DNA of 64,000 nucleotides from an uncultured SAR324 cluster bacterium (GCA_905182865.1 CAJJCY010000003.1:393740-457739); one strand, 5' to 3'; shown: positions 39,062 through 62,700, counted from the stretch's first letter. The notes: generated by a model from the letters alone, not told the origin. Program-made: numbers and translations.

Positions 39062-39195
39062 TATTAATTTTCCTGTTTATTTGTTATAGTGACAATCTCG
39101 CAGAAGGCACGCGGGTGGGATCCAGGAACTCTGAAACTGTCCCCCGCTACCGTATTCTCCAATACAATAATGTACGGGCACTGTGCGCTGTATCC

Positions 39196-42342: not shown

Positions 42343-42430
42343 GGAGAGTTGTCAGAGTGGTCGATTGTGGTAGATTTGAAATCTGCTGTACGGCAACGTA
42401 CCGGGGGTTCGAATCCCTCCCTCTCCGCCA
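42343..42430 (+). tRNA. tRNA-Ser (anticodon UGA), class II with a long variable arm
   Basis: Acceptor GGAGAG/CTCTCC. Anticodon stem GTAGA/TCTGC with loop TTTGAAA. T-arm GGGGG-TTCGAAT-CCCTC. 3' end GCCA. Confidence 0.8.
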
Positions 42431-42546
42431 CACATATTTCAGTGTTAATCCTAAATACATCCGCTAAAATATTAAATAACAAAGTGTATTGAATTATTTA
42501 GCTGTCCAAAAGTGTCCACATTCTTCCATTGCAATAGCTGGGCTAA

Positions 42547-42909
42547 ATGGATTCGAAAAATCTACGAAACCGCCCCCTGACCTGCAGCGCTTGCGGGGAG
42601 TCAATGCGGATCATCGCCTTCATCACCGATCCGTGTGAAGTAGTGAAGATCCTTGAACACATCGGGGAACAAACCTCGCATGCGCCACCACTGATGCTAA
42701 CCGATCCTGTTCCCTCCTTTAGTGACTCAGGTGATACGAACTTCCAATACCCTGATGTTCCCTGGTATCCCGATCTTTACCGAGTTCGAGCATTGAACGC
42801 GGTAAAGGGATCTGCGTGCTCAGCGGCCCTTTTTGCAGATTCTCAGAGCCATCAAAAGCCATGGAGATACCTTCCAAAAAGGGACGACACCGAAAACCAA
42901 ACACAGTAA
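42547..42909 (+). CDS. Hypothetical protein (GC-rich) with an N-terminal Cys pair
   Basis: 120-aa ORF with no assignable family. Its composition differs from the flanking chromosome. Confidence 0.3.
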   Translation: MDSKNLRNRPLTCSACGESMRIIAFITDPCEVVKILEHIGEQTSHAPPLMLTDPVPSFSDSGDTNFQYPDVPWYPDLYRVRALNAVKGSACSAALFADSQSHQKPWRYLPKRDDTENQTQ

Positions 42910-43132
42910 AATTAAATCCGTCAACCCTCCACCAGATGCCATTGGAGTCATGGTAATATTCCCTTGACTCATTTTGATTTTCCTATATTATTATTTCTTA
43001 TGCAAAGTGAGGATTTTTACTACATACACCTGATAGGACACACTGTGGATTCTGAGTTCATGACATGCTTGTTTTAAAGCTAGACTGTTCAATGGATCCG
43101 TCCCGTGTTTTCCTGCCCTTCCGACAGAGAAT

Positions 43133-44191
43133 TTGATGGCGAAAAAGATTCTGATCACCGGTGGCGCCGGGTTTATCGGATGTCACACTACAAGATATTT
43201 TGCGTCAAAAGGCCATGAAGTCGTCATCATTGACAACCTTTCGCGCAAAGGAACACCGGAGAATCTGGACTGGCTCCGGGAGGGGCATCCCGTCACTCAT
43301 TACGAAACCGATATCCGCGATTTTGAAGCCGTCACTGACATCTTCAAAAGGGAAAAGGGTTTCAGCGACGTCATTCATCTTGCTGCCCAGGTGGCAGTGA
43401 CTACTTCAGTCGCCAATCCCCGTGACGATTTTGACATCAATGCCCTCGGCACCTTCAACATGCTCGAAGCAGTCAGGAATTTTTGTCCTCATGCCCCCTT
43501 CATTTATGCATCCACCAACAAGGTCTACGGCCTTCTGCCCCATATTGAAGTAGTGGAGGGAGCTCGCCGTTATGAGATCAAGGGTAAAAAGGGGGTTAGT
43601 GAGTCTGAACCGCTGGACTTCCATTCACCCTACGGCTGCTCGAAGGGAAGCGCCGATCAATATGTTGTTGACTACGCACGCATCTACGGCCTGAAGACGG
43701 TTTCCTTCCGCCAGTCCTGTATTTATGGTGAGCGCCAGTTCGGCGTTGAGGATCAGGGATGGATGGCCTGGTTTATCATTGCAGGCATCCTCGGAAGGTC
43801 TGTTTCGATATACGGTGACGGCAAACAGGTCAGGGATGTGCTCTACGTTCACGATCTGGTGAAACTCTACGAAAAGTCCATGGAACAGAGGAATGCCCTA
43901 AGCGGTAAAGCCTATAATGTGGGTGGGGGTTTAGAAAATTCGCTCTCTCTGCTTGAGTTCATCGAAATTCTCAAAGATCAGGATCTTCAACTTTCCTTCA
44001 CCTTTGGGGATTGGCGTCCAGGGGATCAAAGGGTTTTTATCAGTGACAACACCAAGGTGGAGAAGGAACTAGACTGGAAGCCTGAGACGGCTCCGGATCA
44101 GGGCATCCGGAACCTGATGTCCTGGGTCAGGGAGAACAAGAAAATGTTAAACTTCCTGCTGGGCGATTCGAACGATGCGGATCGGAATTGA
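43133..44191 (+). CDS. NAD-dependent sugar-nucleotide epimerase/dehydratase
   Basis: 'KILITGGAGFIGCH' Rossmann motif, the 'YGCSKGSADQY' catalytic YxxxK, and ~56% GC. Confidence 0.85.
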   Translation: MMAKKILITGGAGFIGCHTTRYFASKGHEVVIIDNLSRKGTPENLDWLREGHPVTHYETDIRDFEAVTDIFKREKGFSDVIHLAAQVAVTTSVANPRDDFDINALGTFNMLEAVRNFCPHAPFIYASTNKVYGLLPHIEVVEGARRYEIKGKKGVSESEPLDFHSPYGCSKGSADQYVVDYARIYGLKTVSFRQSCIYGERQFGVEDQGWMAWFIIAGILGRSVSIYGDGKQVRDVLYVHDLVKLYEKSMEQRNALSGKAYNVGGGLENSLSLLEFIEILKDQDLQLSFTFGDWRPGDQRVFISDNTKVEKELDWKPETAPDQGIRNLMSWVRENKKMLNFLLGDSNDADRN

Positions 44192-45308
44192 CGGCAAACG
44201 GTATTACCTCAACAGTTCGGGTCTGGGTCGATACAGCAGGAGCCTAGTTGACCATCTGCTTGGACTCGATGATGCTGAGGATCTGGATATCTGTCTTTAC
44301 CGTCCGAAAGGAGAGGTAAAGTTCCAGCCTAAAGCTCACCAGCACCTGACAGAACTAACCGCAGAATATCTCCTTCCGGGCCACATCGGCAATGCATTCT
44401 GGCGTTTCACCAAACTTCCCGCACTAATCAACAGCGGCAGCTATGACCTATTTCACGGTCCCAGCCATGTTCTACCGGGCAGGCTGGAATGCCCCTCGGT
44501 AGTAACTATGTTGGACCTGATCTTCATGCGCTATCCACAATATTTCAGGGCGTGGGACAGGAACTACTACCGAATCAGTTTCAGCAGGTCGGCCCGCCTT
44601 GCGGATCATATCATCAGCATATCAGAAGCGACGAAAGCGGATCTCGTCAACCTCTTCGGAATCAGGGAGGAAAAAATCAGTGTCATTTATCCGGGCTTCG
44701 ATGATGTCTTTACCAGGCTGCCCCAGAATCGGCTCGATGAAATAAGAAAAAAATATGAACTCCCCCGGGACTACGTCCTCTATGTGGGAAACATTGAACC
44801 CCGTAAAAACGTCCTAGAACTGGCCCAGGCCTTCAACTCAATGAAGGAGTCCTCCTCTATTGACAAAGATGTGCATCTGCTAATCGTCGGCCAAAAGGGT
44901 TGGTTCTACAAGGACATTTTTGACGGGATTGATGCCCTGCCTTGTCGGGAACAAATCAGGTTTGTGGGCCCGGTCTATGGCGAGGACCTCGCCGGAGTCT
45001 ATCAGATAGCCAGGGTGATGGCTTATCCTTCGATGTTCGAGGGATTCGGTTATCCGGTCCTCGAGGCGATGCGCCAGGGCACGCCAGTTCTCACTTCCGG
45101 TATTTCATCCATGCCAGAGGCGGGCGGGGATGCCGCCCATTACGTCAATCCCGAAAGTCTGGACGATATTGCGTCCGGCCTGTGCAGGATTTTGAATGAT
45201 GAAAGCTACCGGCAGGAACTGATCGAAAAAGGAACCCGACACGCCGAGGGATTTACCGCGGAGAAGATGGCTAAGGAAACCATGGAGGTCTACAGAAAAC
45301 TGGCCTAA
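44175..45308 (+). CDS. Glycosyltransferase family 4 (GT-B, RfaB-like)
   Basis: 'EPRKN' and 'EGFGYPVLEAMRQGTPVLTS' GT4 motifs. Overlaps the epimerase gene by 17 bp. Confidence 0.85.
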   Translation: MRIGIDGKRYYLNSSGLGRYSRSLVDHLLGLDDAEDLDICLYRPKGEVKFQPKAHQHLTELTAEYLLPGHIGNAFWRFTKLPALINSGSYDLFHGPSHVLPGRLECPSVVTMLDLIFMRYPQYFRAWDRNYYRISFSRSARLADHIISISEATKADLVNLFGIREEKISVIYPGFDDVFTRLPQNRLDEIRKKYELPRDYVLYVGNIEPRKNVLELAQAFNSMKESSSIDKDVHLLIVGQKGWFYKDIFDGIDALPCREQIRFVGPVYGEDLAGVYQIARVMAYPSMFEGFGYPVLEAMRQGTPVLTSGISSMPEAGGDAAHYVNPESLDDIASGLCRILNDESYRQELIEKGTRHAEGFTAEKMAKETMEVYRKLA

Positions 45309-45600
45309 GTGATGCTATTTGTTGGCTCCCAAAAGCCGGACAAAGCAGGTTGATGATCATTACTGCCCTATACAATTCCGGCATCGGTTCAGAAAAGTGA
45401 ATCTCGAACAAAAAAGCTGTCATTCCCGCTCCCAGATCAGGTCGAGGATAAGCTTCGCGGGAATGACAAACAAATTAGAGACGGTTTAATAAATCTCTTG
45501 GGGGTTTAACTCCCCGCCCCTTGGGGCGAAAGTATTTGATTACCTTTCCAATACCCCACTGCTTGCGGCGGGGTATTTTATTCTTAGTTATGAAAATATT

Positions 45601-46068
45601 ATGAATAATCCCAATCCTCCGTCACTGCCGCTTAAATCGGATGGATCAATCAGCAAAATTTGGTTTGCCGATGATTCGCAGGGCATTGAGCTGCCGTTTT
45701 ATGATACAAAGGTTCAGGCAGGTTTCCCCTCTCCCGCAGAAGATCATCTGGAGCAGAGGCTTGATTTAAACACACTGATGATCGAAAACCCAAGCGCTAC
45801 TTTTTTTGTGCGTGTGGCCGGTGAGTCAATGAAGGACATCGGCATTACTGACGGCGACATCCTGGTTGTGGACCGCAGTATTGAAAGCTGGGGAAACCGC
45901 ATTGTGGTGGCTGTGATTGATTCCGAATTTACAATTAAGCGTTTTACCACACAAAATGAAACGGTAGTTCTGGAAGCAGAAAATCCAGACTATCCGGCAA
46001 TTAAAATTACGCCTGAAATGGATTTCTCTGTCTGGGGAGTGGTTAGCTGGACCTTAAAAAAACTATGA
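45601..46068 (+). CDS. umuD: Translesion polymerase accessory protein UmuD (LexA-like S24 peptidase)
   Basis: Ser/Lys dyad context 'GESMKD...TIKRF'. Confidence 0.85.
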
Positions 46069-47327
46069 TTGCCCTGATTGACTGCAATAATTTTTACGCG
46101 TCCTGTGAACAGGTTTTTCAGCCCCAACTGGCGGGAAAGCCACTGGTTGTGCTTTCCAACAATGACGGCAATGTCATTGCCCGCTCCAGTGAAGCAAAGA
46201 AACTGGGCATTGGAATGGGGGTGCTGACCGGCAGTGTCCGTGGATTTGTCCGGAGCCACGAACTGCAGATACGCTCATCGAACTATGCTCTTTACGGTGA
46301 TATGAGCAGCCGGGTGATGGAAACACTGGAAGAGCTTTTACCCAACGTGGAACGCTACAGCATCGATGAGGCTTTTGCGGATCTTTCCGGTTTATCACGC
46401 GCACGGATGCTGGAACTTTGTCAGCATGTACGGCACCGAGTGCAGCGTCACACAGGTCTTCAGGTTTCTATAGGAGTCGCAGAAACAAAAACGCTGGCCA
46501 AAGTTGCAAACCGGCTGGCAAAACGCCGTCCGGAATTATCCGGAGTCTGCATCGGAACTGAGACTGAAAGTTTTGGTAAGGTACTGGAGCAAATGGAAAC
46601 CGGAGATGTTTGGGGAATTGGGAGAAAGATCAGCAAAAAATTAACTGGATTCGGCATCTACAATGCAAAGCAGTTGCGGGACGCGGATCCTGTCTGGATT
46701 AAAAAACAATTTTCTGTGGTGCTGATGCGTACAGTTCTGGAGTTACGTGGTGAAAGCTGCCTGGAACTGGAGGAGCCCGAAGAATCGAGAAAGTCCCTCA
46801 TGTGCGGACGTTCATTCGGCAAGCCACTAAAGGAACTGGAAGATATCCGGCCGGCATTGACTCATTTTGTGCAAAATGCTGTTACACGGCTCTGGAAATA
46901 CAAGCAGGCGACTTCGGCCCTTACCGTGTATTTGTCAACAAACCGGTTCCGCAAAAACATTGCTCAACGCAGTGTTTCCGCATCTGTTGAAATGGAAGCG
47001 ACTGATAATGTGCTTCAGCTCAATGCCGAGGCTCAGCGCGTGCTGGAGCAGGCTTTTGAGTTCGGATTTGAATACCACAAAGTGGGTGTTCTGCTGCACG
47101 ATCTTGTTGCAGTAAAAAATATTCCAGCCTCGCTTTTTGAAACAGAATCGGGAATTAAAAACTCACCGGAACTGATGTGGGCTGTAAGAGAGATCAATGC
47201 GAAATTCGGACGCTATACCGTGGCTTCCGCTTCTGTTTCCGGAAGTTCAGACTGGAGGGCGCGCAGCAAATTCCGGAGCCCCGCCTTTACAACCTGCTGG
47301 AATGAATTGCCGCTCGTGCAGGCTTGA
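46065..47327 (+). CDS. umuC: Y-family DNA polymerase V catalytic subunit UmuC
   Basis: '[14 protein letters not shown]' N-terminus. Overlaps umuD by ATGA. Confidence 0.9.
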
Positions 47328-47630
47328 AAAATCATTGCGCAATTACAAGCATAACAAATCATGACATAGTTTTTTTCGAAACCTTCAGCTTTGCACAGCA
47401 AAAACTGTAAACCAATAAATCGGTTTGAAAGTATCGTGGTTTTCTCAGTCTTCCGAATAAATTCAGTGGCTGTTCTCAAAATCAGTGCTACTCAATCCGG
47501 CAAAGATCCAAAAATAATCGCTAAACTGTGAAAACAAAAAACGAGGTGGAATAAGTGGTAGAAATTGCTATGCTGAAAACAGGTAAAAGAAACGCTGAAC
47601 TGATGAAAACAGGATTGGCCTGTTCCGTCA

Positions 47631-47710
47631 TATGCACCCGTAGCTCAGTTGGATAGAGTGTCAGTTTCCGATCCCGCGACCGCAGGTTCGACTCCTGCCG
47701 CCCCTGCCAC
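47631..47710 (+). tRNA. tRNA-like element with canonical D- and T-arms but unpaired anticodon and acceptor stems (pseudo- or chimeric tRNA, Arg-like halves)
   Basis: GCACCCG-TA-GCTCAGTTGGATAGAGT...GCAGG-TTCGACT-CCTGC-CGCCCCT-G-CCA. No 5-bp stem with a 7-nt loop exists in the anticodon region. The 3' acceptor strand is not complementary to GCACCCG. Confidence 0.5.
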
Positions 47711-47728
47711 CATAATACTCTAGTATCC

Positions 47729-47824
47729 TACAGTATTACTGTAAGTTACAAGCCACTGCGACACACTGCGACAAAGCTAAAATAAGGGGGTAAACCAAGC
47801 AAACATTGCGACATTATTGCGACA
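47729..47824 (+). promoter_or_regulatory. Candidate operator region: a perfect palindrome TACAGTA-T-TACTGTA at 47729-47743, plus four direct TGCGACA repeats at 47757, 47767, 47807 and 47818 (10-11 bp phasing)
   Basis: Seen directly in the sequence upstream of the PLP-dependent dehydratase gene. Confidence 0.35.
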
Positions 47825-47928
47825 AAAATTGCATGTAGGTAGCAGTAATTTTACATTCTTTTTTTTGCAAAATTCTCCACAAATTTCTCAGTTTACGGCA
47901 CCTTATTCGACGATATTAAGGAACAAAC

Positions 47929-48879
47929 ATGATAACACTCAATGATGTGAAAGCAGCTGCGGTAGAGATTTCGTCGTATGTACGGCGGACGCCCTTATGG
48001 AAAAATGAAACCCTGAGTACAAGGTTGGGGACTAATGTCTATCTGAAGATGGAAATGTTCCAGAAAACGGGGTCGTTCAAGTCACGTGGAGCCTTTAACC
48101 AGATGTTGGCAAGAGGAAAGGATGCGCTAGATAAAGGGGTGGTGGCCGTCAGTGGCGGAAATTTCGCACAGGGAGTTGCTTATGCCAGTCGCATGTTGGG
48201 TGTGGATGCTATTATTTGTATGCCAGAAGGTACGCCACAGAATTATATCGACGCGACCCGTGGTTATTCAGCAACCATCGACTTGTCGCCCGATATTCAG
48301 ACTGCAATTATCCGATACAATGATTTAGCTGATCAAGGTCGCGCCGCTTTACATCCATTTGATAATCCCCATCAGATGGCCGGGGCTGGTACTGTCGCGC
48401 TGGAAATTTTCGAAGACCTTCCAGAAATAACTGACCTCGTTATCAGCATCGGCGGTGGTGGACTGATTAGTGGAAACACAGTTGCTATCAAGGGCTTGAA
48501 CCCGCAAGTTCGTGTATGGGGTGTGGAAACTGAGGGGGCTGCCACAATGAAAACAGCCATGGATGCCGGGGAAGTCGTCAACATCACGCCAACCTCATTA
48601 GCGAAGACACTTGGCGCACCATTTGTTGCTCAGGATGCGCTTACTATTGCACAGGAACATCTAGAAGAATTGCTCATTGTCAGTGATAAACAGGCTATTG
48701 ATGCACAACGTCTTATTCTTGAAAGAGCGAAGGTGCTGCCAGAATTGGCTGCATCCTGTACGTTGGCTGCTGCTCAGACTATCAAAGACAGGTTTGGCCC
48801 AGATGACCATCTGGTTTTATTGATGTGTGGCGGAAATGACTCGGTGGCGAATCTGGTGAATTATGCACAGATGGCCTGA
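47929..48879 (+). CDS. PLP-dependent serine/threonine dehydratase-family enzyme (threonine dehydratase/serine racemase-like)
   Basis: PLP-lysine motif 'SFKSRGA' and a Gly-rich 'GGGGLISG' loop. Confidence 0.8.
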   Translation: MITLNDVKAAAVEISSYVRRTPLWKNETLSTRLGTNVYLKMEMFQKTGSFKSRGAFNQMLARGKDALDKGVVAVSGGNFAQGVAYASRMLGVDAIICMPEGTPQNYIDATRGYSATIDLSPDIQTAIIRYNDLADQGRAALHPFDNPHQMAGAGTVALEIFEDLPEITDLVISIGGGGLISGNTVAIKGLNPQVRVWGVETEGAATMKTAMDAGEVVNITPTSLAKTLGAPFVAQDALTIAQEHLEELLIVSDKQAIDAQRLILERAKVLPELAASCTLAAAQTIKDRFGPDDHLVLLMCGGNDSVANLVNYAQMA

Positions 48880-49047
48880 ATTATTTATCCCAGCTACCTT
48901 TAACCTCAGCCCATACGAATTTTGGATCAGCATCTAATCCAGACATTATTTGTGCTACCCAACCATCTGGACCTTCACTTTCCCTAAATTCTTACTAATA
49001 TATTAATGTATATGAAATATTGGCTAGGTTGTGGAGGTTGTCTTAAA

Positions 49048-49200
49048 GTGAAGGATTAAGTGGGAGGTTACTTGGAATTCCTCTGACTCTGTGAAGAATT
49101 AAGTGGGAGGTTAGTGGAGGGTGTCTGACTGTGAAGAATTAGTGGGAGTTACTTGGGAGGGTGTCTGACTGTGAAGAATTAGTGGGTGTAATCACAGGAG
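49048..49200. repeat. Imperfect ~40-bp tandem repeat, about 3.7 units of GTGAAGAATTA(A)GTGGGAG(G)TTA..GG(G)AGGGTGTCTGACT
   Basis: Units start at 49048, 49091, 49131 and 49171. It lies in the gap between convergent genes. Confidence 0.7.
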
Positions 49201-49355
49201 ATGAGGGGGTTTGTATTAGGGTGTATTCTTAGAATCCGAAAGTCCCGGACCCTCAGATGTACACAAATGCTATGGTTTTTCACTTAAATATAAAGCAGAA
49301 ATTTCATCATCACTAAGTGAGCGGCTATAGATTCTTACGTCATCAATTTTACCTA

Positions 49356-51763
49356 TCATAAAATCATTTTGGTGAGACTACTACCATTTCCATCAAAACT
49401 TGAAGCTTCAGAACCCCAACCTATGAAACCATATCTGTCAGAAGAAGTACCAAGATTTCTTCCCGAATGTGTATTACTGTTAGAGGCCACCATATCTCCG
49501 TCAACAAATATCTTTTTATCTACTGTACTGGATGAATTATACCATCCACAAATGTGATGCCAATTCCCATCTTCATAAGATTCAGTTCGCAAAACGGCTG
49601 GATATTTCAGAGGCAGTTAATGCTCTGTTGTAGATTCTTAATTCATCTATTGCTCCCGTGAAAAAAGTACTGCCGTTTCTGTTTCTTCCTATTCTGAAAC
49701 GGTTGAATTCAGTCGTACCTCCTGATCACTTTCAGTTATCATCTATTAATATAACCTATGGAATTAGTACCATCGTAAGTGAAGGCGATGAATGTCCAAG
49801 CATCTAGTTGTGCTGTGCTCAAAACGATGTTGCCTCCGCTTGATTTTCTGATATGAAAATTGCTTCCATTAAGATCAATCTGAAAGCCACTACCTGAGTC
49901 ATTGTAGCTTGAAAACATAGCTTCATAAGTTCCCGAACTGGCGGGCTTGGCCCAGAGTGAAATAGTGTAATTGTCAAAACTTGGGATATTTGCCGTTTCC
50001 AGATAATCTCCATCGCCATCGAAATAATAGGCACTGTTGCTGGAGTTATCCTTGCCGTCGGTTAAGGTTGTATCACCATAAACTGTAAAATCTCTTCCGT
50101 TGCTAGTTAAATCTTTAGCATTTCCATTGAATGGATAGTATGCAACCAATGAGTTATCAAATGTGTTAAATGATGTTTCATAGGGGCTTTCCAGTGAAAC
50201 TCATTTTCGTCTTTGGTATCTGTGGTTAATTTAATTTTATATTTATTATCATAAGAAAGATTGTCAGATGGATCAAACGTAAAGGTCTTGGCCGAGTTGG
50301 AAATGTAAGGTGAGGATGACATCTGGACACATGTGCTGAAATTGTCTGAGGAAACCTGAAAACTACCATAACAAGATGTATTGTCGGTATTAGTAGTTAT
50401 AGAACTGTTGTCCATAATCTCCGAGAAGATTAAAGATATGTTTTCACTTACTGAAACTGAACTTTGGTTGTCTCTCGGAGAGATAGAAGAAACAGTTGGC
50501 GCCGTGGTGTCCGTCACAGTTGTCGCAACAGTCACGCTGTTGCTCGATGCGCTGGAGAGGTTGTGTACGGCGTCCTCTGCATAAACTTTGTAGGTACCGT
50601 CCTCAAGTTCCGTAGCTGGCAAATTAGTATCGGAATTTGCTAAGATGATGGGAACACTGTTCCACTGGCTGTCCGCAGCTCCCGTGATGCTGGTAAAATT
50701 ATTACTGACCGAGACAGTGGTTTTGACCAGGTAGGCCGTGCCGGTCTCTGTGCTCTGTACCACGGCACTACCGGAGGTGGTTATAGTAGCTGTGGTGACA
50801 CTGGCAGCCGGTGGAGTGGAATCTGACATAACAGTCACGCTGTTGCTCGATGCGCTGGAGAGGTTGTGTGCGGCGTCCTCTGCATAAACTTTGTAGGTAC
50901 CGTCCTCAAGTTCCGTAGCTGGCAAATTAGTATCGGAATTTGCTAAGATGATGGGAATACTGTTCCACTGGCTGTCCGCAGCTCCCGTGATGCTGAGAAA
51001 ATTATTACTGACCGAGACAGTGGTTTTGACCAGGTAGGCCGTGCCGGTGTCTGTGCTCTGTACCACGGCACTACCGGAGGTGGTTATAGTGGCTGTGGTG
51101 ACACGGGCAGTTGGCGCCGTATTGTCAGTGCCCCCGCCAGTATCAGTGCCCCCACCTGTTTCCGTATCTCCGCCAGTATCAGTGCCCCCACCTGTTTCCG
51201 TATCTCCGTCAGTATCAGTGCCCCCATCATTGCCATCGTCACTACCAGTATCTGTATCAGTGCCTGTGCCTGGAACCGGTATCAGTGTGATAGGTAAACT
51301 GAGATTATTGGTATTTGTACCGATAGAAAAAGGTTGTGATTCTCCGTAGTAGCCAACTTCTTGGTATCCTGAAATCAAGTCAGACAAGCTGTAGTTCTCT
51401 TTGAACAGAAAGGCGAAGATTTTCATCTGTGTGTTGAGTGGAATCTCCAGGCTAACCTTCTTGTCAGCCGTATTCATCAATCCTTGTGCAAAACTGCTGT
51501 AATAATTCCTGTAGCTGCTTGTCAAGTATTCCAGCGAGGGCAGAGCGAGGATAAGGTGGGTATTATACTGGCTCAATTCGAATGCAGAAACACTTCGAGC
51601 TACTGCGTGAGGAAGATCTTTGATCGAAGTCCATATTCAGGATAACAGTCCGTGTATCCTGCATTTCCGGCTCTAGATCACCGCAGCCCGTAAAAATAAA
51701 TAAGGGTATTACTAAAAGAAACGTACACCTTAACATTCTTTTGTTTCGTATTAATCTAATCAA
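49356..51763 (-). CDS. Large cell-surface lipoprotein. The domain order is lipobox, Thr/Asp-rich linker, two Ig-like domains, SbsA-Ig/Big_5-like domain, LamG (concanavalin-like) domain. It is broken into at least four ORFs by apparent frameshifts.
   Basis: Minus-strand ORFs 51563-51763 (signal plus 'FTGC'), 50107-51576 (two ~101-aa near-identical repeats; 'SSISPRDNQSSVSVSENISLIFSEIMD'), 49739-50149 ('VAYYPFNGNAKDLTSNG') and 49356-49592 ('WHHICGWYNSSSTVDKKIFVDGDMV'). Confidence 0.65.
50531..51107. repeat. Two ~276-bp near-identical (>95%) tandem copies, period ~303 bp, encoding duplicated Ig-like domains
   Basis: 'gtcacgctgttgctcgatgcgctggagaggttgtg...' recurs at 50531 and 50834, with only a few substitutions. 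Confidence 0.8.
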
Positions 51764-51805
51764 TCGTAATTTATTTCAATGATCACACGCAGGTTCGTCT
51801 CAATG

Positions 51806-53674
51806 TCACCCATGCGTGTCATCAATCTCACCAAGAATGTCACCATAATCACTATAATCATCACCGCCACCATAATCACCGTAATCATCACCGCCACCAT
51901 AATCGCCGTAATCATCACCACCACCATAATCACCTAACTCACCACCTCCTAATCTCCTAATCAGTCACCACCCCCTAAGTCTCCTGGGTCTCCTCCAAAG
52001 TCACCACCTCCTAAGTCTCCTGTCTCCTCCAAAGTCCCCACCACCTAAGTCCTCCTGTCATCCTCCAAAGTCCCCTGGGTCTCCTCCAAAGTCCCCACCA
52101 CCTGAAGTCCCCTGGTCTCCTCCAAAGTCACCACCACCTAAGTCTCCTGTGTCTCCTCCATGGTCACCTGATCCACCTAATCTCCTGGATCCTCCTGGAT
52201 CACCTCCAAAGTTTCCTCCTGGATCACCTCCTGGATCCCTCCTGGATCACCTCCGGATCACCGTCCTGGATCACCTGCCTGGATCACCTGGTTCCTCCTG
52301 GATCACCTGGTCACCTGGATCACCTCCGATCACCTGGATCACCTCCGAAGTCTCCTGTCCTGGATCACCTCCGAAGTCACCTCCGAAGTCTCCTCCTGGA
52401 TCATCCTCCAAAGTTTCCTCCGAAGTCTTCGTCTCCACCGAAACTTGCTCCGAAGTCGTCATCATCGCCGAAACTACCATCTGGGCTGAACTCTGTGCCC
52501 ATAGGTTTAAATGTGTCTGCGCCAGGTCCAACACTTTCAGGCCCCATCATCATTCCACCTTGTTCACCTTCAGGTCCCATCTCCCCCTTGTCACCTCGGC
52601 CCATCATCATTCCACCTTGTTCACCTTCAGGCCCCATCATCATTCCACCTTGTTCACCTTCAGGCCCCATCATCATTCCACCCTCTTCACCTTCAGGACC
52701 CATCATCATTCCACCCTCTTCACCTTCAGGCCCCATCATCATTCCACCCTCTTCACCTTCAGGACCCATCATCATTCCAGGTCCTCCTCGGACCTTCATC
52801 ATCTCCTGGTTTTCCTTCACTTCCAGGTCCTATTATGCCTTCTTCATCTTCCTCTCCCTCTCCAGGCATTCCAGGTCCTTCTTTTCCTTCAGGTCCAGGA
52901 CCTTTCTCATCTCCCGGTTTTGGTTCTCCTTCTTTGTCCTGAGGTTCATAGCTGTTTCTTTTGTTCTTCCTCTTCCTCCTTTTTCTTTTTTTCATTTTCT
53001 TTGCGTACTTCTTCCGGCTTTACCGCCTCTCCGAATTTGACGATTCTAAAAGCTTTGGGCGAGTCGGCCTTGAGGATCTGTGCACGCATTTTTGGGGCAA
53101 CTTCAACAGGCGCAGTTGGAGTGGAGTTCTTCTGAACTGTGGAAGCCTGGTTTGCAGGTACTTCAATTTCGATGTCAGGCATGTTCACCGGCGCTAATGA
53201 AACTGTACCGGAAATAGTGAGAAGACTCGTTTGTGTGTTGGAAGCGCCAACCACAAAATCGGTCCCCCTCACACCTACCAGCGCAGTAACGGTACGAATC
53301 TGAAATCGTTTCCTTTTGCTCTTCTTTTTGAGTTTGCCTTGAATCTTAAAACGGGCTTTTCCGGTCAGCAGGGAAATACTGCTGGTTTGCCGGGTAATCT
53401 TTCCCATTCGAAAAAAGGAACGGGAGGAGAGTTCAATTATTTCAGGTTTACCCTTGATCTTGATTTTAACGGTTGTATCTTTGCCGGTCTGTACACGGTC
53501 TTTGGCATGGAGGGCCATTTTGGCGCCGGGCTTGCGTAGCAGACGTGTGCGTTCCGGGCCGATCACCTTGACCGAACCTTTTTCCAGCAACAGTAGTCCC
53601 TGCTGTGCCTGCAGGGGAATTGCAGGAATGACAGCCAGGAACAGGGCCAGCAGGAGTAAAAATCGAAATTTCAT
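51806..53674 (-). CDS. Secreted FecR-domain protein with a very long low-complexity tail. The tail is KE-rich, then collagen-like GP-rich, then seven copies of GPEGE(E/Q)GGMMM, then (GGDFGGD) and (DYGGGDDYG) repeats. It is split across at least four frames.
   Basis: ORF 52946-53674 has a signal peptide and a FecR-like beta-domain ('IRTVTALVGVRGTDFVV'). Downstream minus-strand ORFs 52759-52995, 52401-52820 and 52271-52534 continue a Gly/Asp/Met-rich reading across 33-bp and ~27-bp DNA repeats. Confidence 0.5.
52541..52780. repeat. 33-bp tandem repeat of about seven units (ccccatcatcattccacc(t/c)t(g/c)ttcaccttcagg)
   Basis: Directly visible in the sequence. It encodes GPEGExGGMMM on the minus strand. 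Confidence 0.85.
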
Positions 53675-58724: not shown

Positions 58725-60681
58725 TTAGTCGTATTTTCTAGGACGTGGAGCAATGAGCGAAGTGTCCACTGCTTCATAAGAAATATCCGGCCCTCCGTTT
58801 TGATAAGTCGCAATGGTGCTTTTGAGCCATTTTACATTATTTTCGGCAAAGCGTTTCATATACGTCAAGTGTTCCGGATTAAAGCCTTCTTCATTGACTT
58901 TTCCGGCGTCTTTCTGTTTTTCATATTCCAGATAAGATTCTGGTCGGAAATCGCTCGGCTGATTGAGGTCAAATTCCGGTTTGTAATGTGAACCCCGGAA
59001 TTCGTCTCTTAACAACGCACCCTTGGTGATTATCTTGGAAAGCTGAATCATGTTCCAGAGTTGGTTGATGAAACTTGGAACCGGATTTGACCAATCTGTT
59101 GTATCAACACAGTTTATGTTCTTCCAACGCTCTTCAAATTCGTCAATTTTTTCGAGCGTTGCCTTCAACTTAGAATTTTCTCGGACAATCAAAACATTGG
59201 AAATCATTTCCTCTGCCATTTCTCTGTGCAGTGCATAAGGGTTCTCATTTCCGGACATTTTCTTAATTTCTGCATATTTTTCCTGCCATTGTTTAGTTGC
59301 CTCCGTAAACAATTTTTCAGGAACATCATCAGCCAGCTTCAGGGACATTTTTGACATAATTGAGCACGCCCGGACTCATCATCAAACCTGTGTAAATGCA
59401 ACTCAACAAAGAATTTGCTCCCAGGCGGTTTCCGCCGTGATACTGATAATCCGCTTCTCCCGCCGCATAAAGCCCAGTGATTGAAGTCATTTGATTTTGT
59501 GGCGATTGGTGGTCGATTAAACCTTCCTCAGTTCTCGTGTAATCTGTCCAAATGCCACCCATTGAATAATGCACCGCGGGAAAGATTTCCATCGGCTCTT
59601 CACGGGGATCAGCACCGGTGAACTTTTCGTAAATCTCAAGAATTCCACCCAGACGATGATCAAGAAATTCACGCGAGAGATGAGTCAAATCCAGATAGAC
59701 TTTCATTTCTCCGTGAACGCCTAATTTATCGTTCACGCAAATATCGTAAATTTCACGTGCTCCAACGTCTCTCGGCACCAAATTTCCAAAAAGCGGATAG
59801 CGCTCTTCAAGGAAATAAAAACGTTCTGTTTCAGGTATATCTTTGGGCTTACGTGAATCACCGGCTTTTCGCGGTACCCATACTCTTCCGCCCTCTCCTC
59901 GTGCGGATTCACTCATCAAACGTAATTTATCACGACCGGGAATGGCTGATGGATGAATTTGGATAAATTCGCCGTTCCCATATTTTGCGCCCTGTAAATA
60001 TGCAGAAGTAACTGCAGTTCCTGTGCAAACCATGGAATTGGTGGAACGTCCGTAAACCAGACCTGGGCCTCCGGTGGCTAAAATAACGGCATCCCCTTTT
60101 TCGGAGCTAATTTCGCCTGAACGCAAATTGTGGATGACCGCACCAATGCAGCGTCCATCACCGTTTAGTACAGCGCCAAGATATTCATGACACTCCATTT
60201 TTTTGACCAGGCCCTGTACTTCGTAATGGCGTACCTGTTCGTCGAGTGCATACAAAAGCTGCTGGCCTGTAGTTGCACCGGCGAATGCAGTGCGGTGATA
60301 GAGCGTTCCTCCAAATCTACGAAAATCAAGATTGCCTTCAGGAGTTCGGTTGAAAGTAACTCCGAGCCTGTCCATCAGGTTGATGATATACGGTGCATGA
60401 TGGCACATATCTTTGCAAAGCGGCTGGTGTGCTAAAAAATCACCACCCTTCACGGTATCATAAAAATGAATGTCCGGAGAATCTCCCTCGCCTTTGATAT
60501 TGACTGCCCCGTTGATGCCTCCCTGGGCACAAACTGAATGCGAGCGTTTTACCGGTAGAAACGAAACCAGCAAAACTGACATACCCAGTTCAGCCATTTT
60601 CATGGTTGCGGCCAATCCGGCTAAACCACCTCCAATTACAATTACTCGTTGTTTGCTCATCTGAAAAGATCTGTTTACCAA
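58725..60681 (-). CDS. sdhA: Succinate dehydrogenase/fumarate reductase flavoprotein subunit, split into 59329-60681 and 58725-59357 by a one-base indel in a C3/G3 run near 59342
   Basis: FAD motif 'VIVIGGGLAGLAA' and the covalent-FAD region 'RSHSVCAQGGIN'. The downstream ORF continues the C-terminal domain. Removing one C restores 'KNVLKLADDV'. Confidence 0.85.
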
Positions 60682-62094: not shown

Positions 62095-62700
62095 CTATTG
62101 AGCAGTAGACGATCTGTCCAGTTTTGACAGAGATTTGAGCCTGAAAGATCGTCTATGTAAGGGTGACAATCCATATTTCTCAATGGCTGCCCTATGTTGT
62201 TTTGTCGGATATCCTTTGTGACCTTCAAAGTGCCATTCCGGATAACGTTTTGCATTTTCGACCATTACTCGGTCCCGTGTGACTTTGGCCAAAATTGAAG
62301 CTGCAGCAATGCTTTTGGAACGAGCATCTCCCTTAACTACTGCCTCACCCCGAATTGTAGTTTGCGGGAACCTGTTTCCGTCAACAAGAGCATAATCCGG
62401 AGCAGGTTCTATTTCAGTCAGGCAGCGTAACATTCCATGAAGCGTAGCCTGCAAAATATTTAGCCTGTCAATTTCTTCTGCAGAAATTGTGACGATTTTA
62501 AATGCCAGAGCCTCAGAACAAATAACTTCAAATAACTGTTCCCGTTTTGTTGAAGAAAGCTTTTTAGAATCGTTCAGAGGATGCTCGGCATTCCAATCTT
62601 TTCCTAAAATAACTGCTGCATAACATCTGCTTGGCTACCGGCCAGTTGGCCTCTTCCTCCTAATCATCTACACCAGCAACTTGCTGTAACAAATCTGCAA
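62095..62700 (-). CDS. rnhB: Ribonuclease HII. The N-terminal ~80 codons are frameshifted near 62635-62645.
   Basis: The C-terminal ORF 62095-62454 matches RNase HII. Upstream, 'GRGQLAGS' and 'AAVILGKDW...' lie in adjacent frames. Confidence 0.75.

Follow-up and report, generated by a model that had tools for sequence, protein, structure and literature searches.

The stretch of DNA considered here lies between a tRNA-Ser gene and a tRNA-Arg-like element in an uncultured SAR324 cluster bacterium. It was analysed within a window of 64,000 nt (GCA_905182865.1 CAJJCY010000003.1:393740-457739), and all coordinates count from the first letter of that window. An earlier note, made from the sequence alone, had read positions 42343-47710 as a GC-rich segment bounded by the two tRNA features, perhaps an old, decayed island. 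The source of the window is a SAR324 bacterium, a member of a deep-ocean, abundant and uncultured lineage. Relatives of the protein encoded by a flanking gene, MoeA, come exclusively from SAR324 metagenome-assembled or single-amplified genomes, the closest by this flank being SAR324-CTD7B (contig L021), with 96.5% identity across 12 kb. Around 90 related contigs, from Tara and further ocean metagenomes, were gathered through exact-protein look-ups and one pattern scan; they bear L-numbers (L004, L021 and so on), and P-numbers (P0001, P0007 and so on) denote related proteins of a small open reading frame (ORF) with a Cys pair. The short-read contigs all break in hypervariable or repetitive DNA that the window crosses uninterrupted. 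The exact-protein look-up returned no identical protein record for the Cys-pair ORF or for a HemJ-like ORF with a TTG start. The features of the locus are as follows.

42343-42430, plus strand: tRNA-Ser gene with anticodon UGA, at the place given by the earlier note (called by ARAGORN as tga; Rfam 39.5 bits); its 3' end is the insertion hotspot.
42431-42529, plus strand: ancestral flank 3' of tRNA-Ser, with about 79-81% homology to the DNA that follows tRNA-Ser in the distant lineages L024, L031 and L032.
About 42530-45581, plus strand: module B, which holds what remains of a transposase gene together with genes for a CDP-tyvelose-2-epimerase-like enzyme and for a GT4 glycosyltransferase; G+C at third codon positions (GC3) about 0.6.
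42547-42909, plus strand: the Cys-pair ORF, a remnant of the C-terminus of an IS91/ISCR transposase, lying leftmost in module B.
43136-44191 (start 43133 or 43136), plus strand: CDP-tyvelose-2-epimerase-like extended short-chain dehydrogenase/reductase (Pfam Epimerase and GDP_Man_Dehyd; GC3 0.59).
44175-45308, plus strand: GT4 glycosyltransferase (Pfam Glycos_transf_1 and Glyco_transf_4; GC3 0.60), overlapping the epimerase gene by 17 nt.
45309-45581, no strand assigned: junction zone between modules B and C, with a 12-nt perfect inverted repeat (45418-45429/45457-45468) and a terminator-like hairpin (45550-45577), from a repeat search.
45582-47861, plus strand: module C, comprising umuD, umuC, tRNA-Arg(CCG) and a repeat-bearing spacer.
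45601-46068, plus strand: umuD, encoding the S24 self-cleaving subunit (NF007621, 161 bits against a cutoff of 110).
46065-47327, plus strand: gene for a umuC-like Y-family polymerase (Pfam IMS, IMS_C and DUF4113), joined to umuD by an ATGA overlap.
47634-47709, plus strand: degenerate tRNA-Arg(CCG) gene, formerly described as a chimeric tRNA-like element (Rfam score below gathering; no ARAGORN call).
47661-47755, plus strand: private diverged tract of 95 bp, which starts at the 5' strand of the anticodon stem and ends some 45 nt beyond the CCA.
47756-47861, plus strand: conserved spacer belonging to module C, where the direct repeat TGCGACA occurs four times (47756, 47766, 47806 and 47817).
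47929-48879, plus strand: module D, a single gene for a pyridoxal phosphate-dependent, serine/threonine-dehydratase-like enzyme (Pfam PALP).

The gene set that the earlier note listed between the tRNA features is thus all present: the Cys-pair ORF, an NAD-dependent epimerase/dehydratase, a GT4 glycosyltransferase and a coupled umuD-umuC pair. The GC content of 42431-47633 is 48.2%, against 42.7% in the remaining window; its coding parts range from 45.5 to 52%, and the highest 300-nt window reaches 55.7%. The rise in GC is therefore real, and the 50-58% once quoted for it is too high. GC3 is deviant in the epimerase and GT4 genes, most core genes falling at 0.38-0.46; umuC is intermediate at 0.51, while umuD (0.455) and the PALP gene (0.454) are ordinary. 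A foreign look, as had been suggested for the whole segment, fits the epimerase and GT4 genes, which are also missing in other SAR324 lineages, and does not fit umuD or PALP. Pfam detects no integrase or recombinase domain in the ORFs between 42.4 and 55 kb, so the claim that the segment is devoid of integrase stands; with the IS91/ISCR-type relic, its extension to transposases does not.

The active insertion point of the locus is the 3' end of tRNA-Ser and not the tRNA-Arg-like element, which had been taken for an island end; the inserts of sister strains lie upstream of the segment. In L021, a gene for a 610-aa Phage_integrase protein (a tyrosine recombinase) immediately follows tRNA-Ser. 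Ten contigs that encode an identical HemJ-like protein, and whose left flank is 98.3-99.7% identical to the window, show three different inserts after tRNA-Ser: an element encoding a 590-aa DUF6538+integrase protein, an element encoding a 524-aa integrase, and an 8.3-kb island of ABC-transporter, ADP-kinase and GntR genes (sugar uptake) that is followed by module B. In the ENA contigs L004, L005, L007 and L008, the end of an element is succeeded by 17 nt that repeat the tRNA-Ser 3' end, and these by B. A gene for a Resolvase-domain recombinase is seen in the flanks of L005 and L008, and the shorter flanks of L004 and L007 match that element at 98-99.8%. The end of this Resolvase-bearing element also precedes umuD in a lineage that is 94% identical. 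New DNA enters at the tRNA-Ser 3' end, where the integrase or recombinase elements of sister strains displace modules B, C and D intact; B-C-D is resident flank pushed inwards by newcomers. Entry at the hotspot would be driven by the site-specific recombinases. The view that tRNA genes are recombination hot spots is borne out at this locus. In the single-amplified genome L032, the gene adjoining the 3' side of tRNA-Ser is gpsA, which does not occur in the window.

The region behind the hotspot does not behave as one unit. By BLAST, window positions 42414-49239 are 98.4-99.2% identical to 16 ENA contigs with differing flanks. This conserved block extends from the interior of tRNA-Ser (the T arm, at 42414) through the tRNA-Arg locus and the PALP gene to 48.9-49.2 kb, and a JGI contig (L067) matches at 97.8%. 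Because the block runs through the tRNA-Arg locus, the two tRNA features do not bound it. B, C and D are co-linear in the 99% lineage. Presence or absence of the segment as a whole was not seen among the relatives, in which 42.4-47.7 kb is never missing as a unit; what is missing, in L066 (94% lineage) and L022 (about 77% lineage), is module B, so that tRNA-Ser is followed by a spacer of 120-175 nt and then by umuD, C being kept.

Module B is a compositionally foreign, lineage-specific block between tRNA-Ser and umuD. Since the first 100 nt or so after tRNA-Ser are common to distant lineages, B proper starts at the relic ORF. Pfam assigns no family to this ORF, and the HUH/Y2 catalytic domain (PF04986) was not found in it. 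Its match to NF052416 (ISCR_clade_Ia) is weak (E 0.038) and confined to the C-terminal 50 or so residues. The related proteins P0007 (E 1.8e-6) and P0001 (E 8.8e-6) match positions 443-493 of the 509 in that model. P0012 and P0024, which carry PF14319, are internally deleted IS91 derivatives, and P0012 also matches positions 62-110 of ISCR_clade_Ia as well as transpos_IS91. Relative to its relatives, the ORF has a 1-nt deletion at 42572. On these matches it is what is left of the C-terminus of an IS91/ISCR transposase; that it had a part in delivering the adjacent epimerase and GT4 genes is conjecture. The best solved relatives of the epimerase are CDP-tyvelose 2-epimerases (PDB 9rl0, E 8e-100; 1orr, E 2e-88), and the module probably modifies a surface glycan. 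No repeat of the tRNA-Ser 3' end was found at the right end of B, where the best match scores 15 against a shuffle 95th percentile of 17, or anywhere up to 53 kb; nor does the window contain a direct repeat of either tRNA 3' end, a check that the earlier note had proposed. IS91/ISCR deletion derivatives in which an N-terminal zinc domain is joined to the C-terminal tail (P0007, P0012 and P0024) belong to a family that is large in ocean metagenomes, with 542 members in one cluster; some are fused to fragments of epimerases or Ig-like surface proteins.

Module C is a complete umuD-umuC operon for a putative translesion polymerase of the DNA polymerase V type, together with the resident tRNA-Arg(CCG), and is older at the locus. 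The cleavage site (A-G, in VQAGFPSPA) and the GESM serine of UmuD align with those of Escherichia coli UmuD (8gmt); the lysine of EFTIKRF was read off the window sequence, the 8gmt chain having alanine there. UmuC has its three Pfam domains but scores 367 bits with NF002955, under the cutoff of 431. No recognised LexA box was found upstream of umuD, the SAR324 LexA motif itself not being known. Module C alone (from 45423 or 45582 to 47861) is common to more than 15 JGI contigs at 91-94% identity. NfeD and two SPFH genes come next in most of them instead of PALP, and some have other genes before C. Elsewhere the module occurs at 94-99% identity with different neighbours and in different orientations. 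Homology to the 94% lineage stops at 47861, and within the B/C junction zone BLAST places homology breakpoints of other contigs at 45388, 45423 and 45582. In L053, C is inverted beside B and is bounded by a 14-nt fragment of the tRNA-Ser 3' end, with a 7-nt CTAAAAT at the junction, which points to a rearrangement through the tRNA-Ser attachment site.

Some further observations concern the junctions of module C. In L053 (1-3100) and in L059, the umuDC-tRNA-Arg module runs in the opposite orientation to the epimerase/GT block. Hairpins of the TGTCATTCCCGC...GCGGGAATGACA type (window 45418-45468; spacers of L022, L048 and L069) recur at SAR324 module junctions and may be recombination-prone elements like repetitive extragenic palindromes (REP). 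The TGCGACA repeats (47756-47824), spaced by 10-11 bp, are kept in the 94-99% lineages, and the array could be a protein-binding site, of the arm type or for a regulator. A second allele of the spacer, about 65% identical, with degenerate repeats and a helix-turn-helix gene after it, is found in L007, L054 and L059.

Module D also travels by itself. The PALP unit (from 47890 or 47904 to 48885) occurs alone at 99% identity in L011, L012, L013 and L020, that is, in at least four unrelated neighbourhoods. This single-gene module carries about 40 nt upstream and 5 nt downstream of the gene and has no obvious flanking repeat. A 12-nt inverted match to the tRNA-Ser end inside the PALP gene (48823-48834) was taken as chance.

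The flagged stretch is therefore best described, with good though not full confidence, as the part nearest the tRNA of a hypervariable region that has tRNA-Ser as its anchor, made of blocks with separate histories. At least four alternative contents follow tRNA-Ser behind left flanks that are 98.3-99.7% identical, and recombinases are present, which is the pattern of a flexible (additive) genomic island. Shuffling of the modules would come from homologous recombination among diverged alleles and from the small hairpin repeats. By Islander-type reasoning, an intact tRNA gene stands at one end (tRNA-Ser, 42343-42430), whereas an integrase inside, a distal tRNA repeat and polymorphism of the whole unit are all missing from the flagged segment. 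A single old, decayed island spanning 42343-47710, ending in tRNA-Ser and in a chimera of two Arg tRNA halves, would agree with the GC raised across the stretch, with tRNA genes at both ends and with the lack of an intact mobility gene inside. It is highly improbable, given that the conserved block passes the tRNA-Arg locus to 49.2 kb, that B and C are differently distributed, that no tRNA-Ser repeat lies at the far end and that, as described below, tRNA-Arg is intact and resident in all relatives and is altered in the window in a manner that leaves no two-half fusion. Rather than one decaying unit, the relatives reveal modules with separate histories, and the segment, though real, is an ordinary part of a flexible region anchored at a tRNA gene.

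The right-hand tRNA feature is a damaged gene. It reads GCACCCG TA GCTC AGTTGGATA GAGT G TCAGT TTCCGAT CCCGC GACC GCAGG TTCGACT CCTGC CGCCCCT G CCA. Its intact D and T arms, TTCCGAT loop, GCCA tail and non-pairing stems had all been seen correctly before; its extent, 47634-47709, differs from the 47631-47710 given then. Only two of five pairs can form in the anticodon stem (TCAGT against CCCGC) and three of seven in the acceptor stem (GCACCCG against CGCCCCT). The Rfam covariance model RF00005 gives 27.8 bits, below its gathering threshold of 29 (E 0.015), in a local match to model positions 6-65 only, so that the element fails as a valid tRNA. ARAGORN makes no call there, tRNA-Ser being the sole tRNA that it calls in the window. 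The minimum free energy of the fold (-16.4 kcal/mol) is no better than that of shuffles (z +0.44), against a z of -2.42 for the native gene. Judged by the covariance model and its predicted folding, the element is a non-functional derivative of tRNA-Arg(CCG).

The native gene is known from the relatives. In 41 of 41 related contigs (16 ENA and 25 JGI, among the latter one with a 5-nt assembly gap and one with Ns at tRNA-Arg), tRNA-Arg(CCG) is intact and identical at the same position and scores 69.3 bits; the D arm, the T arm and the 7-nt CCG anticodon loop of the window element are identical to it. Compared with contigs about 99.5% identical elsewhere, the window shows 64-73 differences over 6.8 kb, 33 of them in 47661-47755. 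Within this tract, both strands of the anticodon stem are altered (5', ACGGA to TCAGT; 3', TCCGT to CCCGC), as are the variable loop, the acceptor stem on its 3' side (CGGGTGC-A to CGCCCCT-G) and some 45 nt of flanking sequence downstream; the 7-nt anticodon loop and 21 nt of T arm inside it are unchanged. The element represents the resident tRNA-Arg(CCG) gene after a 95-bp replacement, a lesion private to this assembly. The window allele is marked by TCAGTTTCCGATCCCGC...CGCCCCTGCCACC and the native allele by ACGGATTCCGATTCCGT...CGGGTGCACCA; the 31-mers specific to the window allele are GTGTCAGTTTCCGATCCCGCGACCGCAGGTT and CTAGTATCCTACAGTATTACTGTAAGTTACA.

The fusion of two Arg tRNA halves, as the earlier note had it, conflicts with all 41 relatives, in which the resident gene is intact. 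Moreover, because the 5' anticodon-stem strand is changed too, a single junction in the anticodon loop does not explain the element, and one crossover within either the anticodon loop or the T loop was rejected on the same ground. Neutral pseudogene decay was also set aside, since 28 nt of loop and T arm are untouched inside a tract that is 35% diverged. The tract is about 65% identical to the native sequence, and its downstream part is still homologous to the native flank (score 8, against -6 +/- 3.1 for shuffles, none of 2000 reaching it); the donor is therefore a diverged homologue of the same locus and not an unrelated tRNA. The native 3' half of tRNA-Arg and the 5' half of a second tRNA are absent elsewhere in the window. 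Searches for the donor found none in GTDB representative genomes or JGI metagenomes. Exact patterns found none in IMG/VR, where one pattern gave eight matches that were not tRNA-like, and BLAST against phage and plasmid records returned only generic T-arm matches. A 32-nt 5' anchor is also present in L046, L051 and L073. L051 and L073 belong to unrelated organisms (56-61% GC), and L046 carries tRNA-Arg(ACG), its match to the window being restricted to the tRNA; all three were discarded as relatives.

The tRNA-Ser gene of the window is also aberrant. In 21 of 21 related SAR324 loci its anticodon is CGA (50-55 bits) rather than UGA. A 48-nt patch in the tRNA body (42349-42396) holds 15 of the 44 differences from L083 across 10.5 kb. 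The patch keeps compensated pairs in the D stem (A12-T23) and the anticodon stem (G27-C43) and a GCAA-capped variable arm; the sole broken pair is 7-66, because the partner base falls outside the patch. tRNA-Ser(CGA) has been turned into a Ser(UGA)-type gene by a patch private to this assembly, such as would be expected from conversion by a genuine tRNA-Ser(UGA) gene. Elsewhere in these 10.5 kb, differences specific to the window cluster just once, at 39106-39119, where a small REP-like hairpin located between yggT and lpxD has a private insertion or rearrangement of 8 nt.

Since both of the two tRNA genes are hit and hardly anything else, the process at work is tRNA-specific. As to its cause, real recombination, attachment-site scars and assembly artefacts were weighed. 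We slightly favour the first, in which the lesions would come from short-tract recombination or conversion with a diverged tRNA or att-like allele. Several points weigh against such an account of the locus. No donor for the 95-bp tract turned up in any of the five collections searched (IMG/VR, GTDB representatives, JGI metagenomes, phage and plasmid records). The TCAGT and CCCGC strands do not pair with each other, so that no single functional tRNA can be the donor, and a crossover in the anticodon or T loop would have kept the 5' stem strand native, which it is not. CGG makes up 8.7 per 1000 codons in the core genes, and the tRNA-Arg gene does not vary among 41 relatives; if it were truly lost, a cost would be expected unless CGG is decoded by another gene. 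Within 17 kb the aberrations are confined to the two tRNA genes, one hairpin indel excepted, a pattern that could also indicate an artefact of the source assembly. Finally, module B has no terminal tRNA-Ser repeat at its far end.

Both lesions may be artefacts of the source assembly, for instance consensus or polishing errors in a long-read metagenome, the true genome having native Arg(CCG) and Ser(CGA) genes. We consider this possible but short of probable. The variants occur in 0 of 41 (tRNA-Arg) and 0 of 21 (tRNA-Ser) independent contigs at 94-99.7% identity. They affect both tRNA genes of the window and little else, the tRNA-Ser patch being limited to the tRNA body. The window is unbroken where short-read contigs stop, suggesting long reads; sdhA and rnhB are frameshifted; and losing the tRNA for a codon used so often is implausible. 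On the other hand, the genes between the two tRNAs have no frameshifts, with only two single-base indels in 6.8 kb outside the tract. The tract reaches 45 nt past the tRNA and is still homologous to the native flank there, which cross-mapped foreign reads would not yield, and the stem bases cannot be explained as a two-way mix of the native sequence with any one other tRNA. A two-way read-mixture model was rejected for the anticodon stem, where the window has bases that are not the native ones and do not pair with the new strand opposite.

Alternatively, an element using tRNA-Arg(CCG) as its attB would have swapped the 3' part of the gene for the tRNA-like portion of a heterologous attP, the rest of the element then being lost through recombination in the spacer shared downstream. 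The anticodon loop (7 nt) and the T arm (21 nt), which remain native, are the places where tRNA-targeting integrases usually cross over, as described for Islander (PMC4383910). The spacer 3' of tRNA-Arg is allelic, the 65%-identical type with different genes after it being found in L007, L054 and L059; the new sequence contains two short perfect palindromes; and integrases are active at the neighbouring tRNA-Ser in sister strains. Yet any loop crossover would have the altered strand (ACGGA to TCAGT) on its chromosomal side and ought to have left it as it was, the window holds no integrase, element remnant or displaced native 3' half, and a matching attP was not found. Such a scar seems doubtful. 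A further reading, in which both rewrites are real and stem from a tRNA-directed process of this lineage, such as short-tract conversion of attB-tRNA genes by tRNA-like sequences of integrative elements, is unlikely. If it were true, tRNA-Ser(CGA) would have been remodelled to a Ser(UGA) type and tRNA-Arg(CCG) knocked out, and CGG decoding would be supplied elsewhere, possibly by the responsible element.

Beyond module D, relatives diverge sharply past 49239, which is the breakpoint of the short-read contigs. A surface-protein gene with Big_5 and Laminin_G_3 domains (49356-51576) is split into at least three overlapping ORFs. It is followed at 51760-53135 by low-complexity tandem repeats with a GC skew of -0.49, whose minus strand encodes repeats of the GGMMMGPEGE type and hydrophobic repeats with a 27-nt period. 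Further on, sdhA/frdA (58725-60681) is divided into ORFs of 450 and 210 aa by a frameshift at an A-run near 59340, and the rnhB N-terminus (62095-62560) apparently contains two frameshifts. The frameshifts in sdhA/frdA and rnhB reflect either pseudogenes or indel errors of the assembly.

The finding is ordinary in kind and modest. It describes a SAR324 tRNA-Ser hotspot with at least four different inserts and several rearrangements among strains 98-99.7% identical, in whose variable zone lie surface-glycan genes and a mutagenic polymerase. It is also a cautionary case: raised GC and two tRNA-like features resembled one island, and comparison across the population resolves modules. A damaged tRNA in a single assembly should not be read as biology unless reads support it.

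In tRNA-targeting integrative islands, as described for Islander (PMC4383910), attL is the regenerated tRNA and attR a displaced tRNA fragment. The SAR324 locus resembles these in having integrase elements directly 3' of tRNA-Ser in sister strains (L021, L076 and L079-L083) and a 13-17-nt repeat of the tRNA-Ser 3' end at the far end of inserts (L004, L005, L007, L008 and L014). It differs in that the window segment has neither an integrase nor a terminal tRNA repeat, and in that the tRNA-Arg-like element is a full-length damaged gene and not a displaced fragment. Low-scoring tRNA-like sequences beside mobile-element hot spots recall the tRNA pseudogenes and fragments that get mistaken for tRNA genes (PMC9897764); unlike those, the element is not truncated, its loops, D arm and T arm being perfect and both long-range stems scrambled.

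Compared with IS91/ISCR elements, the Cys-pair ORF matches the C-terminal CxxC...IIAFI...KILEH tail, and its relatives are internal deletions that keep the N-terminal zinc domain; in contrast to them, the ORF lacks the HUH/Y2 catalytic domain, and no oriIS or terIS was identified. Like known umuDC (DNA polymerase V) operons, module C encodes a UmuD with the A-G cleavage site and the Ser/Lys dyad, followed by an overlapping umuC with IMS, IMS_C and DUF4113. It departs from them in the score of UmuC (367 against 431 bits), in that no LexA box was identified and in that the operon travels with a tRNA-Arg gene.

The closest parallels to the locus as a whole are marine. Successive integrations at tRNA genes build islands in Prochlorococcus, the tycheposons (bioRxiv 10.1101/2020.12.28.424599), and additive flexible genomic islands are known in Alteromonas (PMC3698932, PMC4119200). 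With these the SAR324 region shares a fixed tRNA-adjacent site, content that differs between near-identical strains, newcomers that push older cargo further in, a cargo of glycosylation and cell-surface genes, and remnants of mobility genes. What sets it apart is the SAR324 lineage in which it occurs and the presence of a serine-recombinase element alongside tyrosine integrases.

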